64,000 nt of DNA from assembly GCF_044324875.1 (NCBI RefSeq), contig NZ_CP172185.1; one strand, written 5' to 3'. This document shows positions 38,559 to 46,632 of this stretch, piece after piece. The translations under genes were made by a program, and so were the position numbers. Origin of the DNA: Escherichia coli (GTDB taxonomy: Bacteria > Pseudomonadota > Gammaproteobacteria > Enterobacterales > Enterobacteriaceae). A model generated the notes under the pieces. It was given only the letters and a program-made list of their open reading frames with translations, was not told where the DNA came from and did not search any database. Numbering within the stretch: the stretch's first letter is position 1; each line of letters opens with the position of its first letter.

Positions 38559-39752
38559 TTACATCACCGCAGCAAACGCCTTTGCCACACGTTGTACATT
38601 TGCCGTATTTAACCCGGCGACACACATGCGACCGCTGGCGATGAGATAGACACCAAATTCTTCACGTAGTCGGTCAACCTGAGCGGCACTTAAACCGGTA
38701 TAACTGAACATGCCGCGCTGATTAAGCAGATAATCGAAATTGCGTTCTGGCATCTCTGTGCTTAATACCTTCACCAGTTCCTGACGCATTGCCAGAATGC
38801 GAGTACGCATCTCTTCTACTTCCGCCAGCCAGCTGGCTTTCAATGCCTCGTCATTCAGCACTGCAGCCACCACCTGCGCACCAAAATTCGGCGGGCTGGA
38901 GTAGTTGCGGCGAACTGTTGCTTTCAATTGCCCCAGTACGCGGCCTGCAGCTTCGGCATCTTCACACAGAACAGAAAGTCCGCCAACGCGCTCGCCGTAA
39001 AGGGAGAAAATTTTCGAGAACGAATTGCTCACCAGAGCGGGTAATCCAGCGCTGGCAATGGCGCGAATGGCGTAGGCATCCTCTTCCATACCGGCACCAA
39101 ATCCTTGATAGGCAATATCAAGAAATGGGATAAGCTCGCGGGCTTTGAGAATTTCAATCACCGCATCCCACTGGTTATTAGTGAGATCGGCACCCGTTGG
39201 GTTGTGGCAACATGGGTGGAGCAACACAATACTGCGGGCAGGTAATGTTTTTAGCGTCGCCAACAGGTCATTAAAGCGCACGCCGTTAGTCGCTTCGTCA
39301 TACCAGGGGTAAGTACTCACTTCGAATCCAGCCCCGGCGAATATTGCTACGTGGTTTTCCCAGGTAGGATCGCTGACCCAGACGCCTGATTCCGGGAAGT
39401 AGCGTTTCAGGAAATCTGCGCCCACTTTCAATGCCCCTGAGCCGCCAAGGGTTTGAATGGTTGCTACGCGCTGTTGTTGCAGTACCGGATGGTCCGCACC
39501 AAACAGCAGCGGCGCAATGGCATGGCGATAGCTGTTAAGCCCTTCCATCGGTAAATAAAGCGAAGCGCCATGAGGCTGCGCATTCAGGCGCGCTTCCGCA
39601 TCCGCCACGGCTTTCAGTTGGGGAATAATTCCGTCTTCGTTGTAGTACAGACCGATACTTAAATTCACTTTGTCGCTGCGAGGGTCTTCTTTGAAACGCT
39701 CCATAAGCGTAAGAATCGGGTCGCCAGCGTAGGCGTCAACTTTTTGAAACAC
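38559..39752 (-). CDS. tyrB: Aromatic-amino-acid aminotransferase
   Basis: Matches TyrB throughout ([16 protein letters not shown]...); the protein aligns from a GTG codon 14 codons inside ORF 38559..39794, whose first codon reads TTG. Confidence 0.93.
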
Positions 39753-39948
39753 GCGATGGTTCTCCAGGTTTACGGGCAGGTGGTTAAAACACAATAAACC
39801 GGAAGAAGGCGAAGATCGAGTGGATGTTCAGGGGCGAACGGCAATTAGCAACAGAGTGAGACTCATGACAAACGTACATCCGCCAGAGGCACGGCCTTCA
39901 TAAGAGCATGAAAGAATATCAACTTATTGAATTGGTAGGATTTTATTG

Positions 39949-39964
39949 GCCGGATAAGGCATTC
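39949..39964. repeat. Left half of a REP palindromic unit split by an IS insertion
   Basis: gccggataaggcattc; the other half resumes at 44042. Confidence 0.6.
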
Positions 39965-40015
39965 TGAACTGCACCCCAAATGTTGGACATAATCTGACAT
40001 CTGAAGGTGCAGTTT

Positions 40016-40537
40016 ATGAAACATTCATTTGAAGTAAAACTTGCCGCTGTAAATCATTACCTGGCCGGTCATGCAGGCATCATTTCTACGGCAAAACTCT
40101 TTCAACTTTCTCACACCAGCCTCTCACACTGGATTAATCTTTTTCTTCTTCACGGTCCTCGGGCACTGGATTGCAGACACAAGCGTAGCTATTCTCCTGA
40201 AGATAAACTTTGCGTGGTTCTTTATGCTCTCGGGCATTCTGAGTCTCTACCCCGGGTAGCTGCCCGGTTTAACATTCCCAGCCACAACACGGTTAAAAAC
40301 TGGATAAAAGGCTACCGCAAATCTGGTAATGAGGCCTTTATCAGGCGCTGGAAGGAGAAAAGCATGACCCGTTCTGATGATACCCATGAAAACGAGGCAA
40401 ACATGACGCCGGAAGAGATGAAGAATGAGCTGCGTTATCTTCGCGCAGAAAATGCATATCTGAAAGCCATGCAGGAGCATCTCCTGGAAAAAAAGCGCCA
40501 GGAGCTGGAGAAAAAACGAAAGTCATCCGGAGCCTGA
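40016..40537 (+). CDS. IS3-family transposase OrfA (HTH and leucine-zipper part)
   Basis: 173-aa ORF (MKHSFEVKLAAVNHYLAGH...), followed by orfB in the -1 frame. Confidence 0.85.
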   Translation: MKHSFEVKLAAVNHYLAGHAGIISTAKLFQLSHTSLSHWINLFLLHGPRALDCRHKRSYSPEDKLCVVLYALGHSESLPRVAARFNIPSHNTVKNWIKGYRKSGNEAFIRRWKEKSMTRSDDTHENEANMTPEEMKNELRYLRAENAYLKAMQEHLLEKKRQELEKKRKSSGA

Positions 40538-40639
40538 GGTGCGGATACTGCCAGTCTGATCTGTTAAAGGCTGCAGGGCTGGCCAGAAGCACGCTGTACT
40601 ACCAGCTGTCACTGCAGAAGGCTAAGGACAAGTATGCTG
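40538..40639 (+). pseudogene. 5' fragment of IS3-family orfB, cut by the IS21-family insertion
   Basis: The -1 frame reads LRCGYCQSDLLKAAGLARSTLYYQLSLQKAKDKYA and stops at the IS21-like left end. Confidence 0.5.
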
Positions 40640-40839
40640 CAAAATGGCATCTGAATCGATCGCAGTTTGGCATTCGAATCGATCATGATTTGGCATCCAT
40701 CTCCGATCACAGTTTGGCATCACAATCGATCACGATTTGGCATGCTTCCGATCATTGATTGGCATCCTGCCAGTCACTCCGGGAATTAACTCTTTTCACC
40801 ACAGTCTCCATTGCCGTGTTTAAACCAGTGGAGACGTCA

Positions 40840-42405
40840 ATGTCCAGAAAGAGAAAATCCAGGAGCACTATGGAAACCTGTTTTAAGATCCTTCAGCTCA
40901 AGTTCGACAAGAAGCTGACTAACCGTTGTATCGGACTGACGTTACACATCAGCGCCTCAACCGTTTTTGAGGTTCTTGCCCGCTTCAAAGCCTCTTCTCT
41001 GTCATGGCCATTACCTGCTGATATATCCCATGACACGCTGGAGAAACTCATTTTTCCGCCCAAAGACACCTTTGCATCAGAGCTTGTAATGCCTGACATG
41101 TTGTACTTCGATACGGAAATGAGAAAACCAGGTGTGACGCGGCAACTGTTGTGGATGGAATACAAGGCACAGGCGGGTAACAAAGCGATGGGATACTCGC
41201 ACTTCTGCCGTTGCTACCGGGAGTGGAAAAAAACGCGACGTCTCTCCATGCGCCAGGAGCATCGTGCCGGCGAAAAGCTTTTTATCGACTTCTGTGGTCC
41301 TACGGTTCCTGTTATTAATCCGGACACCGGTGAGATACGCCGCGTGGCAATCTTCGTGGCCGTAATGGGGGCGTCCAACTATACCTACGTTGAAGCGTGC
41401 GAAGGTCAGGACATGATGTCATGGTTAAATGCCCACAGCCGTTGCCTGACCTTCCTGGGCGGCGTACCGAAGCTGCTCATCCCCGATAACCTCAGAAGCG
41501 CAGTGAAAAAGGCCGATCGATATGAGCCTGTCATCAACGACAGTTATCAGGCACTGGCTGAGCACTATGGCACGGTTATCATCCCGGCCCGACCACGCAA
41601 ACCTAAAGATAAACCAAAAGCAGAAAACGGCGTCCTCATCGTTGAACGATGGCTTCTTGCCCGCATCCGTAATGAAACCTTCCACACGCTCAGGGCGCTG
41701 AATGCGCGCCTTAGGGAGTTACTGACAGACATGAATAACCGGCCAATGAAGGGGTACGGCAATCAAACCCGTGCAGAACGCTTCCGCATACTGGATGCGC
41801 CAGCACTCTCTCCGCTGCCTCTGGCACCTTATGAATACACGGAATACAAAGCTGTGAAGGTTGGCCCTGACTACCACGTTGAATATGCCCGTCACTGGTA
41901 CTCCGTTCCACACGAACTGGTCGGTCAGCGTCTGTCACTGAAGGCGGGGCAGTCGGTGGTACAGCTCTGGCACAAGGGGCAGTGTGTGGCGCAACATCCG
42001 CGCAGCACACATGAATATAAACACACAACCAATCCGCTTCACATGCCAGAGCGCCACCGGCAGCACGGGACATGGACACCGGAACGCCTGATCGAGCAGG
42101 GAAAACGTACGGGCCCGTCCACAGGCCGGGTGGTTGAATCCATGCTGAAGGCAAAACCCCATCCGGAACTGGCTTATCGTGCAGTTCTGGGGCTGCTGGC
42201 ACTTCAGAAAAAATACGGCCCGGAACGGCTGGAAAAGGCCTGTTACGTTGCCCTGCACTATAACGCCCCTGACAGACGCTTTATCGACAATCTGCTGCGT
42301 CACCATCGGGAGAACCTGGAGCTTCCATTATCCCGCCAGGGCGAACAACATCCGGCATATGCTTCAGAGCATGAAAACCTGCGTGGTCCGGGCTACTACC
42401 ACTGA
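40840..42405 (+). CDS. istA: IS21-family transposase IstA (HTH and DDE integrase)
   Basis: ORF 40759..42405 with an HTH N-terminus and integrase core; start chosen at MSRKRKSRS and uncertain. Confidence 0.8.
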   Translation: MSRKRKSRSTMETCFKILQLKFDKKLTNRCIGLTLHISASTVFEVLARFKASSLSWPLPADISHDTLEKLIFPPKDTFASELVMPDMLYFDTEMRKPGVTRQLLWMEYKAQAGNKAMGYSHFCRCYREWKKTRRLSMRQEHRAGEKLFIDFCGPTVPVINPDTGEIRRVAIFVAVMGASNYTYVEACEGQDMMSWLNAHSRCLTFLGGVPKLLIPDNLRSAVKKADRYEPVINDSYQALAEHYGTVIIPARPRKPKDKPKAENGVLIVERWLLARIRNETFHTLRALNARLRELLTDMNNRPMKGYGNQTRAERFRILDAPALSPLPLAPYEYTEYKAVKVGPDYHVEYARHWYSVPHELVGQRLSLKAGQSVVQLWHKGQCVAQHPRSTHEYKHTTNPLHMPERHRQHGTWTPERLIEQGKRTGPSTGRVVESMLKAKPHPELAYRAVLGLLALQKKYGPERLEKACYVALHYNAPDRRFIDNLLRHHRENLELPLSRQGEQHPAYASEHENLRGPGYYH

Positions 42406-42421
42406 CAGAAGGAACAACAGT

Positions 42422-43177
42422 ATGAGTGATAACCTGTTAAACAAACTGACCCAACTGAAACTCCCGGCGATGGCCGGGAGCCTGATACGGCAGCGGGAAA
42501 CGCCTCAGACCTACGACGAACTGTCGTTCGAGGAAAGGCTGACGCTGCTGGTTGATGACGAGCTTCTGAGCAGGGAAAACAGCCGTGTGGCACGGTTGAG
42601 AAAAAATGCCGGCCTGAAATACCAGGCAACACCGGAAGGGCTGCGCTATCCGGCCTCAAGAGGTCTGCGGGCTGAACAGATGAGAGAACTGCTGAACGGC
42701 CACTACATAACCCACAGGAAAAACCTGCTGATAACCGGTCCGACAGGATGTGGCAAGAGCTGGATAGCCAATGCGCTGGGCGAACAGGCATGTCGACAGA
42801 AACACAGCGTCCGGTACTGTAGAACCGGGCGATTACTGGAACAACTGGCTCAGGGACGTGTTGATGGCAGCTGGCTGAAATATCTGAAACAGTTGCAAAA
42901 AATACAGGTTCTAATCCTGGACGATCTGGGGCTGGAACAGTTAAGTAACGCCCAGTGTAATGACCTTCTGGAGCTCATAGAGGATCGTTACGGACAAAGC
43001 AGCACGATAGTGGTAAGCCAGTTCCCGGTAGATAAATGGCATGGTCTGATGGAGAACCCAACAACAGCAGATGCCATCCTGGACAGACTGGTACATAACT
43101 CACACCGAGTGGTCCTTCAGGGAGAGTCACTGAGGAAAAATCCCCCGGTAGTGGAAAGCAGCGAAAAAACGCGTTAA
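42422..43177 (+). CDS. istB: IS21-family helper ATPase IstB
   Basis: Walker A GPTGCGKS and Walker B (LILDD); internal ATG of ORF 42179..43177, 17 nt after the istA stop. Confidence 0.85.
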   Translation: MSDNLLNKLTQLKLPAMAGSLIRQRETPQTYDELSFEERLTLLVDDELLSRENSRVARLRKNAGLKYQATPEGLRYPASRGLRAEQMRELLNGHYITHRKNLLITGPTGCGKSWIANALGEQACRQKHSVRYCRTGRLLEQLAQGRVDGSWLKYLKQLQKIQVLILDDLGLEQLSNAQCNDLLELIEDRYGQSSTIVVSQFPVDKWHGLMENPTTADAILDRLVHNSHRVVLQGESLRKNPPVVESSEKTR

Positions 43178-43284
43178 AAAGCGGTAGAAAAAGTTAAGTT
43201 CCCGGTTGATCGAATGGATGCGAATCGCTGATCGGACTTCGATGCCAATCCGTGATCGAATAGAGCGGAATACGCAGTATGCTG

Positions 43285-44020
<736 letters not shown>

Positions 44021-44041
44021 TAGGTTTTGGGGTTCAGTTCA

Positions 44042-44058
44042 TTCACGCCGCATCCGGC
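44042..44058. repeat. Right half of the REP palindromic unit split by the IS insertion
   Basis: ttcacgccgcatccggc; joined to 39949..39964 minus one ttc copy it restores a canonical REP. Confidence 0.6.
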
Positions 44059-44084
44059 ACAAACAATCAAATATTACAGAACGA

Positions 44085-45164
44085 TTAATCCACGTATTTC
44101 ATCGCGACCCTTGAAGTCAGGCGCGTAATAAGTTCGTAAGCGCTTACTTTCGTCATTTCAGCGATACGTTCTACGGGCAAACCTTCGCCCCATAAAATGA
44201 CCGGGTCCCCGGCTTTGTCCTGCGCCTGTGGACCTAAGTCTACGCAGATCATATCCATCGCCACGCGCCCGACAATCGGCACTTCGCGACCGTTCACCAG
44301 CACTGGCGTACCGGACGGCGCGGCGCGCGGATAACCATCGCCATAACCCATCGCGACTACGCCCAGGCGGGTATCACGTTCGCTTACCCAGGTTCCACCA
44401 TAACCGACAGGCTCTCCGGCTTTGTGCTCACGCACGGCAATCAGGCTGGAAGTTAGTGACATCACTGGCTGACAGCCAAAATCGGCACCGGTGGAGCGAT
44501 CTTCCAGCGGAGAGACGCCATAAAGAATGATGCCCGGGCGCACCCAGTCAAAATGCGACTGTGGCCACAGCAGAATGCCACCCGATGCGGCAATGGAACG
44601 TTGACCTGGTTTGCCTTCGCAAAAGGTATTAAAGATAGCGAGTTGTTTCTCGGTTGCGCCGCATTTTGGTTCATCCGCGCGCGCAAAATGGCTGACGATA
44701 TTCACCGGCTGACGAACGTTTTTGCACTGGGTCAGGCGATGATAAAACGCCTCAGCCTGTTCCGGCCTTACGCCCAGACGGTGCATACCGGTATCGAGTT
44801 TCATCCAGACGGTTACCGGCTCGTCCAGGCTAGCCTCTTCCAGCGCAGCCAGCTGTTCTTCGTTATGCACGGCGGTATGAAAATGTTGCGCAGAAATCGT
44901 CGGCAGATCTCTGGCATCAAAAAAGCCTTCGAGTAACAGTACAGGTTTGGTGATTCCCCCCGCACGCAGTCGCAGAGCTTCTTCGAGACGGGCTACGCCA
45001 AAGGCGTCAGCATCGGGGAGCGTTCGCGCGGTCTCAAGAAGACCGTGACCATAAGCGTTCGCTTTCACCACCGCAACCATTTTACTGGCAGGTGCCAGTT
45101 CACGAAGACGTTGCAGGTTGTGTCGCAGAGCGCGGCGGTTAATCACAACAGTTGCCGCTTGCAT
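44085..45164 (-). CDS. alr: Alanine racemase (biosynthetic)
   Basis: 359 aa; PLP-binding [10 protein letters not shown] motif. Confidence 0.95.
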
Positions 45165-45216: not shown

Positions 45217-46632
45217 TTATTCGTCGTCGTACTGCGGCCCCGCATAGTTGTCGAAGCGCGACCATTGACCGTTAAAGGTCAGGCGTACCGTCCCGATTGG
45301 GCCGTTACGTTGTTTACCGATAATAATTTCCGCGATGCCTTTTAAATCACTGTTTTCGTGATACACCTCATCACGATAGATAAACATGATCAAGTCCGCA
45401 TCCTGCTCGATAGAGCCAGATTCACGCAGGTCGGAGTTGACCGGGCGTTTGTCGGCACGTTGTTCCAGAGAACGGTTCAACTGGGACAGCGCCACCACCG
45501 GCACGTTCAATTCTTTCGCCAGTGCTTTCAGCGAGCGGGAGATTTCTGCAATTTCCAGCGTACGGTTATCGGAAAGCGCCGGTACGCGCATCAGTTGCAG
45601 GTAGTCGATCATGATAAGCCCGATGCCGCCGTGTTCACGGGCAATACGGCGCGCGCGGGAACGCACTTCCGTTGGCGTCAGGCCGGAGGAGTCATCGATA
45701 TAGATATTACGTTTTTCGAGCAAAATACCCATGGTGCCGGAAATGCGCGCCCAGTCTTCATCATCGAGCTGCCCGGTACGGATTTTAGTCTGGTCAACGC
45801 GCGACAGCGACGCCAGAGTACGCATCATAATCTGTTCTGATGGCATCTCCAGCGAGAAGATAAGTACCGGTTTATCCTGCAACATCGCCGCGTTTTCGAC
45901 GAGGTTCATCGCAAATGTCGTTTTACCCATCGACGGACGCGCAGCGACGATGATCAAATCCGACGGCTGCAAGCCAGCGGTTTTTTTGTTGAGATCGTCA
46001 TAACCGGTGTTTACCCCGGTAACGCCATCGTGTGGCTGCTGAAACAACTGCTCAATACGCGCCACGGTTGCGTCGAGCACATCGGCGATGTTCTTCGGGC
46101 CTTCGTCTTTGTTTGCACGACTTTCGGCAATTTTAAAGACGCGGGATTCAGCAAGGTCCAGCAGATCTTCGCTGGTACGCCCCTGCGGATCAAAACCGGC
46201 TTCGGCAATCTCATTCGCAACCGAGATCATCTCACGGACAACGGCACGTTCACGCACGATGTCCGCATAGGCACTGATGTTCGCTGCACTTGGCGTATTT
46301 TTTGACAACTCTGCCAGATAAGCAAAACCACCGACGCTATCGAGTTGCCCCTGGCGTTCCAGCGATTCCGCAAGGGTAATCAGATCGATAGGACTACCGC
46401 TTTCCTGCAAACGCGCCATTTCAGTAAAGATATGACGGTGTGGGCGGGTGTAAAAATCGTCTGCCACCACACGCTCGGCTACATCGTCCCAGCGTTCGTT
46501 ATCCAGCATTAAACCGCCCAACACCGACTGCTCCGCTTCGATCGAGTGCGGAGGCACTTTCAGCCCGGCAACTTGTGGATCGCGTTCGCGGGGTTCAGCC
46601 TGCTGTTTGTTGAAGGGTTTATTTCCTGCCAT
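45217..46632 (-). CDS. dnaB: Replicative DNA helicase
   Basis: 471 aa; Walker A (ARPSMGKTTFAMN). Confidence 0.97.
   Translation of the reverse strand: MAGNKPFNKQQAEPRERDPQVAGLKVPPHSIEAEQSVLGGLMLDNERWDDVAERVVADDFYTRPHRHIFTEMARLQESGSPIDLITLAESLERQGQLDSVGGFAYLAELSKNTPSAANISAYADIVRERAVVREMISVANEIAEAGFDPQGRTSEDLLDLAESRVFKIAESRANKDEGPKNIADVLDATVARIEQLFQQPHDGVTGVNTGYDDLNKKTAGLQPSDLIIVAARPSMGKTTFAMNLVENAAMLQDKPVLIFSLEMPSEQIMMRTLASLSRVDQTKIRTGQLDDEDWARISGTMGILLEKRNIYIDDSSGLTPTEVRSRARRIAREHGGIGLIMIDYLQLMRVPALSDNRTLEIAEISRSLKALAKELNVPVVALSQLNRSLEQRADKRPVNSDLRESGSIEQDADLIMFIYRDEVYHENSDLKGIAEIIIGKQRNGPIGTVRLTFNGQWSRFDNYAGPQYDDE

Follow-up and report, generated by a model that had tools for sequence, protein, structure and literature searches.

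In the present study, two insertion sequences were found one within the other: an element of the ISSso4 family (IS21 family) lies within IS1397 (IS3 family), which in turn occupies a REP between tyrB and alr. We regard this as a genuine structure produced by the ordinary wear of mobile DNA, and we hold with high confidence that it is best read as two nested, known ISs in an otherwise colinear E. coli core chromosome (uvrA and tyrB on one side, alr and dnaB on the other). No feature of the sequence speaks against this reading. The window, that is, the whole 64-kb stretch of DNA analysed, holds one copy of each element; its remainder follows the order of E. coli chromosomes colinearly, with an identity of 98.6-99.4%. 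Both elements, as well as the nesting of one IS within another, are already known, and nothing in the structure is new. The names ISSso4 and IS1397 are putative to the extent that they follow the PGAP annotation of near-identical copies. The earlier note on this DNA had described an IS21-family istA/istB pair inside orfB of an IS3-family element, with a flanking duplication, and this description was borne out by profile matches, by ends set from 10 copies and by an excision that restores IS1397. The features are as follows.

39939-39964, unstranded: left half of the interrupted REP between tyrB and alr (39939-39960 pairs with 44047-44068)
39962-39964: TTC duplicated by IS1397, left copy
39965-44041: IS1397 (IS3 family), a composite of 4,077 bp holding the ISSso4-family element in orfB
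39965-39989, + strand: left inverted repeat of IS1397, 25 nt (TGAACTGCACCCCAAATGTTGGACA), with 80% complementarity to 44017-44041
40016-40537, + strand: IS1397 orfA, 173 aa, intact (NF033516 profile positions 1-90)
40489-40495, + strand: A AAA AAG slippery heptamer, predicted -1 frameshift site joining orfA and orfB, read from the sequence
40496-40637, + strand: 5' fragment of IS1397 orfB, severed by the insertion and ending in GTATGC
40632-40637: left copy of the GTATGC duplication, the last 6 nt of that fragment
40638-43276, + strand: complete IS21 element of the ISSso4 family, 2,639 bp, terminating in TGCAAAATGG...GAATACGCA, with boundaries common to 10 copies
40638-40766, + strand: left terminal region, with the terminal repeat (AAAATGGCATC) and five GATC-N(3-5)-WTTGGCAT units
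40840-42405, + strand: istA, DDE transposase, 521 aa (NF033546; Pfam rve and Mu-transpos_C_2)
42422-43177, + strand: istB, AAA+ helper ATPase, 251 aa (NF038214; Walker motifs)
43208-43276, - strand: right terminal region, with the terminal repeat and two further GATC units, GATCACGGATTGGCAT and GATCAGCGATTCGCAT (- strand)
43277-43282, unstranded: right copy of the GTATGC duplication; the TG that follows (43283-43284) is original IS1397
43283-44009, + strand: 3' fragment of IS1397 orfB with the catalytic core (NF033516), in frame with the 5' fragment once the insertion is excised
44017-44041, + strand: IS1397 right inverted repeat, ending in GGGGTTCAGTTCA, placed by inverted-repeat pairing and by alignment to intact copies
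44042-44068, unstranded: TTC, right copy (44042-44044), and the right REP half

IS1397, its REP site and the order of events

Two insertions would account for this arrangement. First, IS1397, at 1,432 bp, would have entered the loop of the tyrB-alr REP palindromic unit, duplicating TTC. Second, the ISSso4-family element would have entered orfB after IS1397 nucleotide 673, duplicating GTATGC; its orientation is that of the surrounding IS1397 genes. The empty site of the first event was observed in E. coli strain 7/2, in which ggccggataaggcaTTCacgccgcatccggc equals the window minus IS1397 and one TTC over 131 of 131 nt. The palindrome interrupted by IS1397 in its loop is gccggataaggcaTTCacgccgcatccggc, and the coding sequences of tyrB and alr are unaffected. 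This placement agrees with REP units being the specific target of IS1397, an experimental finding cited in PMC1525189.

Excision of 2,645 bp (40638-43282, the inner element plus one copy of its duplication) leaves an IS1397 of 1,432 bp, the published length, in which orfB is continuous. The restored element aligns in one piece over positions 1-1432 with IS1397-annotated copies at 99.6-99.8% identity; the alignment to intact copies begins at 39965, and the PGAP name in the matching records is 'IS3-like element IS1397 family transposase'. Motifs of the A AAA AAG type direct frameshifting in IS3-family elements, and a -1 shift at this heptamer in the restored element would give an open OrfAB of 449 aa. 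The 3' part of orfB matched the IS3 OrfB profile (NF033516; curated cut-off 160 bits) with 308 bits over profile positions 114-369 of 369. In addition, the restored element shares with IS1397 the orfA/orfB arrangement with an A6G slippery site, an OrfAB with a DDE core, 25-bp inverted repeats with TG...CA ends, a 3-bp duplication (3-4 bp is the rule in the IS3 family), a full-length identity well above a 95% threshold and insertion into a REP. Copies of IS1397 with at least 80% coverage were found in 1,707 genomes. The present copy is unlike these known ones in being interrupted and in its location: the alr-tyrB REP is unoccupied in 5,426 complete E. coli genomes, none of which has IS1397 alone at this REP, and neither element was found at alr-tyrB in complete RefSeq E. 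coli genomes.

The interruption of orfB is a 2.6-kb element and not a sequencing error, and it splits OrfAB ahead of the catalytic core, near residue 207 of 449. The earlier note had concluded that the outer element is inactivated. This holds for autonomous transposition only, and since orfA and both 25-bp repeats are kept, IS1397 is non-autonomous rather than dead. With these parts intact, the composite could therefore move by means of an IS1397 transposase supplied in trans.

The nesting had also been taken to record the order of two transposition events. ISSso4 did enter a pre-existing IS1397, but it may have done so either before or after the arrival of IS1397 at the alr-tyrB REP: the IS1397 ends of the composite are intact, and the nesting is thus no proof of an event at this locus. 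It is possible, and in our view unlikely, that ISSso4 entered IS1397 elsewhere and that the 4,077-bp IS1397::ISSso4 was subsequently copied as a unit into the alr-tyrB REP by the transposase of another IS1397 copy acting in trans. The intact inverted repeats and TTC duplication are consistent with such a move, as are the frequent multicopy state of IS1397 in E. coli (6-11 places per record among the matches listed) and the absence from the 5,426 genomes of IS1397 by itself at this REP, which would be the intermediate; furthermore, copy-out-paste-in transposition, as established for the IS3 family, would have left the donor copy in place. However, the strain would need a second functional IS1397, an element nearly three times as long as usual would have to transpose, and insertion in situ is simpler and accounts for the same data. 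The sole other IS1397::ISSso4 found, in EC13 (NZ_CM169488.1, near an rrn operon and kgtP), resembles the present one in its two elements, their relative orientation, the insertion in orfB and an overall length near 4,078 bp, but it lies at another locus, with the insertion 139 bp further into orfB and with the duplication CTCGGC. EC13 was therefore rejected as an instance of the same structure and is considered an independent insertion; given its different junction, it was not the donor of the composite described here. Were the composite to have moved as a unit, the nesting would be no record of event order at alr-tyrB. We likewise give little credence to the broader proposal that the composite is a "piggy-back" unit, in which IS1397 ends served in trans deliver an active IS21 element specifically into REPs, the alr-tyrB locus having arisen in this way. 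The same applies to a separate proposal, that the ISSso4 family has given rise to a non-autonomous mini-element of 89 bp which is still mobilised by its IstA and IstB.

Ends and target duplication of the inner element

The ends of the inner element were set by 10 independent E. coli copies with unrelated flanks, compared in register, which placed the element at 40638-43276 with a 6-bp GTATGC duplication. Intact IS1397, the empty site of the second event, has AAGTATGCTGATG a single time (unbroken alignment of the query over 1-1432). Identical 6-mers on the two sides would arise by chance with a probability of 4^-6, about 2.4e-4, and this figure applies because the ends were fixed independently by the other copies. 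Nine of the 10 E. coli copies had a duplication, which was 6 bp long in seven cases and 7 bp long in the other two; in metagenome copies, an unbiased set, they measured 5-7 bp, with one further match of 4 bp.

The direct repeat reported in the earlier note does flank the element, and it was the start, given there as 40640, and the length, given as 8 bp, that required revision. The string gtatgctg occurs at 40632-40639 and again at 43277-43284, and this exact repetition of an 8-mer is what would speak for an element of 40640-43276 with the 8-bp duplication GTATGCTG; duplications in the IS21 family range from 4 to 8 bp. We consider this geometry very improbable. In all the other copies TG stands before CAAAATGG, whatever the flank, and therefore belongs to the element; EC13 has CTCGGC followed by TG on the left versus CTCGGC followed by CT on the right; and a duplication of 8 bp was never seen among the copies. 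The target in intact IS1397 reads GTATGC-TG, so the two extra bases agree by coincidence (1 in 16).

It is also scarcely credible that no simple insertion took place, the IS1397 pieces having come from different copies by ISSso4 x ISSso4 recombination or by an assembly chimera across repeats, for although rearranged copies do exist (the one of plasmid L004 lacks a duplication and lies between unrelated flanks), here the flanking 6-bp duplication is perfect, the two IS1397 pieces add up to 1,432 bp exactly and give an open OrfAB, the outer flanks rebuild an intact REP with its TTC duplication, and the E. coli chromosome order is normal on either side.

Transposition proteins and terminal repeats of the ISSso4-family element

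The inner element belongs to the IS21 family. Its IstA matched the IS21 transposase profile NF033546 with 284.6 bits over profile positions 2-293 of 294, and its IstB matched the helper ATPase profile NF038214 with 257.8 bits, both above the curated NCBIfam cut-offs of 160 and 200 bits, respectively, so the family assignment given previously stands. In IstA, the Pfam domains rve and Mu-transpos_C_2 were located at residues 141-255 and 326-397, and the remainder, beginning at about residue 398 and reaching to 521, gave no Pfam match. The istA ATG is preceded by a GGAG at a distance of 6 nt, and the PGAP start is 10 codons further in than 40840. IstA is without stops and differs from other copies by 0-2 aa. 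The istB gene follows the istA stop on the same strand after a gap of 16 nt, and its product carries Walker A (GPTGCGKS, residue 106) and Walker B (VLILDD, residue 163) motifs. IstB is identical in amino acid sequence in nine other copies, eight of which are WP_001282653.1, named 'IS21-like element ISSso4 family helper ATPase IstB' by PGAP.

The ends of the element also agree with the IS21 family, with imperfect inverted repeats that have TG...CA termini, a short duplication (6 bp here) and multiple subterminal sites, comprising six repeat units on the left, spaced 22-24 bp apart, and three on the right. A miniature derivative, 89 bp in length, was noted as well.

Transposition in the IS21 family needs both IstA and IstB, and the abutted ends form a reactive-junction promoter. 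A by-eye look for such a promoter, with the -35 box in the right end and the -10 box in the left end, gave no convincing spacing. We infer the steps of movement by analogy with the IS21 family. IstA, a DDE transposase with HTH, rve and a Mu-C-type beta-barrel, would bind the subterminal repeats, pair the ends and cleave at the terminal CA-3'. IstB, an AAA+ ATPase, would assemble on target DNA and bend it, recruit and activate IstA, and set the staggered cuts, the repair of which would yield the 6-bp duplication. Published work has described an IstA tetramer, multiple terminal repeats and a requirement of IstB for correct duplications (PMC10122671), as well as IstB assembled into decamers, which bend the target DNA and activate the transposase (PMC11208146). 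From IS21/IS5376 (PMC10122671), the left-end repeat units are presumed to be IstA binding sites.

The element resembles IS21/IS5376 in its istA-istB operon, its DDE transposase with rve and a Mu-C-type beta-barrel, its AAA+ IstB, its TG...CA ends, its multiple direct repeats per end and its short target duplication. Several differences were also observed. First, IstA has 521 aa here, compared with about 400 aa in IS5376 (PMC10122671). Second, the six left and three right repeat units contrast with L1/L2 and R1/R2 in the prototypes, and a Dam site (GATC) is present in every unit, unlike in IS21/IS5376. Third, the duplication is 6 bp (5-7 bp), whereas 5 bp is quoted for IS5376.

Copies in other genomes and meaning of the insertion

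ISSso4 is an IS21-family entry of ISfinder, first named in Shigella sonnei and also present on plasmids such as pCT. It has been listed in S. sonnei genomes and in IncI/K plasmids (bioRxiv 10.64898/2026.03.18.712784; PMC6361801). Copies with a query coverage of 80% or more were found in 224 complete E. coli genomes, and chromosomal and plasmid copies in E. coli share the 2,639-bp length and the ends. Beyond 0-5 SNPs, the present element showed no difference from the copies compared, that in strain ESDR8 being identical; it is most safely called ISSso4 or a close isoform of it. The istA and istB reading frames are open in all compared copies. A scan of species-representative genomes with the left-end 28-mer gave no match.

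The best E. coli matches had suggested a strong target consensus, GTATSC, for ISSso4. We rejected this consensus as a ranking artefact, since the query used in the search for E. coli copies carried the flanks of the window and similarly flanked copies were ranked first. In 38 distinct left flanks from metagenome contigs, target preference was weak: the two central positions of the duplication were A or T in 27 and 31 of the 38 flanks (binomial p = 0.009 and 6e-5), and A was rare at position -6.

For annotation, the locus should be given as an ISSso4-family element at 40638-43276 (6-bp duplication) in IS1397 at 39965-44041 (3-bp duplication) in a REP, with the outer transposase marked as a disrupted pseudogene. 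The importance of the finding beyond annotation is small. The insertion is strain-specific and could therefore be used as a lineage marker. Moreover, the inner copy is probably recent and still active, because its genes and ends are intact and it is near-identical to copies elsewhere; an intact, near-consensus copy of ISSso4 suggests that this strain probably has an active IS21-family element.

The tyrB-alr spacer and the nested elements

The window is ordinary, colinear E. coli core chromosome (fdhF...acs...uvrA...tyrB on one side, alr-dnaB...plsB-lamB on the other), and both sides of the feature gave single-piece alignments at 98.6-99.4% identity with thousands of complete E. coli genomes. 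The tyrB-alr spacer, which in other strains is approximately 250 bp with one REP palindrome, contains 4,080 bp extra in the window, and four plus-strand open reading frames (ORFs) of substantial size were observed at 40.0-44.0 kb.

Features of the tyrB-alr region
38559-39794, minus: tyrB (ORF listing)
39965-39989 and 44017-44041: IS1397 inverted repeats, 25 nt, TG...CA (repeat search)
40016-40537, plus: N-terminal part of an IS3-family transposase (NCBIfam)
40840-42405, plus: istA, IS21-family transposase (NCBIfam NF033546, 284.6 bits, cut-off 160)
42422-43177, plus: istB, IS21 helper ATPase IstB (NCBIfam NF038214, 257.8 bits, cut-off 200)
43206-44009, plus: IS3-family catalytic part (NF033516, 308 bits, profile positions 114-369 of 369)
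44085-45164, minus: alr (ORF listing)
45217-46632, minus: dnaB (ORF listing)

The profile scores of istA and istB bear out the two-gene IS21-type module described in the earlier note, and its nesting in an IS3-family transposase gene was confirmed, since the flanks are IS3-family and excision of 40638-43282 left an element of 1,432 bp in which orfB is continuous. The restored sequence aligned in one piece (1-1432, 99.6-99.8%) with copies labelled by PGAP as 'IS3-like element IS1397 family transposase'; therefore, the outer element is IS1397, a copy of which is present at a coverage of at least 80% in 1,707 of 5,426 genomes. A -1 shift at A AAA AAG (40489-40495) is predicted to give an open 449-aa OrfAB in the restored element. 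The inner element entered IS1397 by clean, simple insertion after nucleotide 673, at approximately residue 207 of OrfAB and upstream of the catalytic core. A mechanically called 267-aa ORF (43206-44009), predicted only, has its TTG start in the right terminus of the IS21-family element and extends in frame past the junction through the 3', catalytic portion of IS1397 orfB. The removal of 39965-44041 together with one TTC reproduced the empty spacer of E. coli strain 7/2 (131/131 nt), where the point of IS1397 insertion falls in the loop of the REP gccggataaggcaTTCacgccgcatccggc, in agreement with the REP/BIME specificity of IS1397 cited in PMC1525189.

Ends, target duplication and target choice

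The junctions of ten independent copies from E. coli chromosomes and plasmids were lined up; some of these interrupt genes (rhsC and those encoding a DUF932 protein, a TPR protein, a YadA-like protein, a prophage derepression protein and a helicase), and others lie beside fecI/IS1, within another IS1397 or on two plasmids. All ten share TGCAAAATGG...GAATACGCA, exactly 2,639 bp, where the similarity ends; therefore, the window element occupies 40638-43276, and the left end formerly placed at 40640 is corrected to 40638. A flanking duplication was observed in nine of the ten copies (6 bp in seven, 7 bp in two), as in strain EC13, where CTCGGC precedes the terminal TG on the left and follows the terminal CA, itself followed by CT, on the right. 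The tenth, a plasmid copy (L004), has unrelated flanks that form no duplication and borders on a truncated IS30, all of which indicates post-insertion rearrangement. The repeat gtatgctg reported in the earlier note is indeed present at 40632-40639 and 43277-43284, but its reading as an 8-bp duplication did not hold: the copy junctions give GTATGC (6 bp), the surplus TG being the element's own terminus on the left and the next two target bases, matching by coincidence, on the right.

An unbiased second set, taken from metagenome contigs, yielded duplications of 5-7 bp and one 4-bp match. Four copies in this set, measured from the left end to the nearest right-end match, are shorter (L021, L058, L052 and L061: 2,627, 2,592, 1,718 and 1,695 bp) and look like internally deleted variants; two further copies measure 2,638 bp. 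At the left flanks of 38 distinct insertions (comparison loci L012-L064), the two central positions within the 6-bp duplication were A or T in 27/38 and 31/38 (p = 0.009 and 6e-5), and A was rare at the first position (3/38). This pattern, to which GTATGC conforms, is weak and fits target choice by DNA shape or bendability rather than by sequence. A GTATSC consensus from the first ten junctions was rejected as an artefact, because the query carried the flanks of the window and megablast ranked look-alike flanks first; the pattern was gone in the metagenome set.

In the IS21 family, IstA tetramers synapse both ends through tandem HTH domains, exposing the terminal CA-3' hydroxyls, while ATP-bound IstB decamers bend the target DNA and recruit and activate IstA, and the correct duplication length depends on IstB (PMC10122671, PMC11208146). 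By analogy, IstA would synapse the ends of the present element, and IstB would bend the target and activate IstA.

Coding capacity, terminal repeats and a miniature derivative

No nucleotide difference separates the window copy from that of strain ESDR8, and 1-5 nt differences were counted against the remaining copies compared; istA and istB are open in every copy, and IstB is identical in amino-acid sequence throughout, labelled by PGAP on eight copies as WP_001282653.1, 'IS21-like element ISSso4 family helper ATPase IstB'. Judged from its sequence, the window copy shows no sign of decay and therefore is probably still active. IstB carries Walker A (GPTGCGKS) and Walker B (VLILDD) motifs, and IstA carries Pfam rve core (141-255) and Mu-transposase C-terminal beta-barrel (326-397) domains. 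At 521 aa, IstA exceeds the structurally studied IS5376 IstA (~400 aa; PMC10122671) by ~120 aa, and residues ~398-521 (window 42030-42405), past the Mu-C-type domain, matched no Pfam family. PGAP begins istA 10 codons later than the first ATG, and a GGAG lies 6 nt upstream of that first ATG.

The left end comprises the terminal unit and five more GATC-N(3-5)-WTTGGCAT units spaced at 22-24 bp, and the right end the terminal unit and two more; such multi-repeat termini agree with the IS21-family architecture (PMC10122671), although the units outnumber L1/L2 and R1/R2 of the prototypes. GATC, the Dam methylation site, opens every subterminal unit (40658-40753 and 43208-43257). Eight of the 13 GATC sites of the element fall in the terminal ~260 bp, where ~1 is expected from the window density, and this excess suggests that IstA binding to the ends might be Dam-sensitive.

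An 89-bp miniature of the ISSso4-type element, in which 56 nt of the left end are fused to 33 nt of the right end and the TG...CA ends are kept, was observed in two metagenome contigs (L029 and L032) and in E. coli strain 550 (L065 601-689; NZ_CP058223.1 4315913-4316001). Its two versions are 2 SNPs apart, and two separate loci are represented, one with the 6-bp flanking duplication CGCTGC (L029) and the other with ACATAA (L032, L065); ~20 complete E. coli genomes have it at 100% identity without annotation. The miniature resembles a MITE that IstA/IstB would mobilise in trans; a search of the window for it found none.

Consequences for IS1397 and order of the insertions

The earlier claim that the outer element is inactivated stands insofar as OrfAB production is lost; without OrfAB, IS1397 is therefore better called non-autonomous than simply inactivated, as orfA and both ends are intact. 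For the same reason, the composite of 4,077 bp could be mobilised in trans. Thus, of the event order claimed earlier, the nesting proves that ISSso4 entered an already formed IS1397, but not that it did so at alr-tyrB, although nesting in situ is much the likelier course. None of 5,426 complete RefSeq E. coli genomes has IS1397, with or without ISSso4, at the tyrB-alr REP.

ISSso4 within IS1397 was observed in one other genome, EC13 (L001, NZ_CM169488.1 1289108-1293185), in the same orientation in orfB. This is an independent event, because the interrupted IS1397 lies at another locus (adjoining an rrn operon and kgtP), the insertion is 139 bp downstream of the site in the window, and the duplication is CTCGGC. 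Two insertions within a 140-bp stretch of orfB may be chance (n=2). The nesting, correctly spotted in the earlier note, is an ordinary and already known type of IS-in-IS insertion involving two catalogued elements. Since IS1397 is absent from this site in all the other complete genomes, the insertion (flanked by 39939-39964 and 44042-44068) could be a strain or lineage marker.
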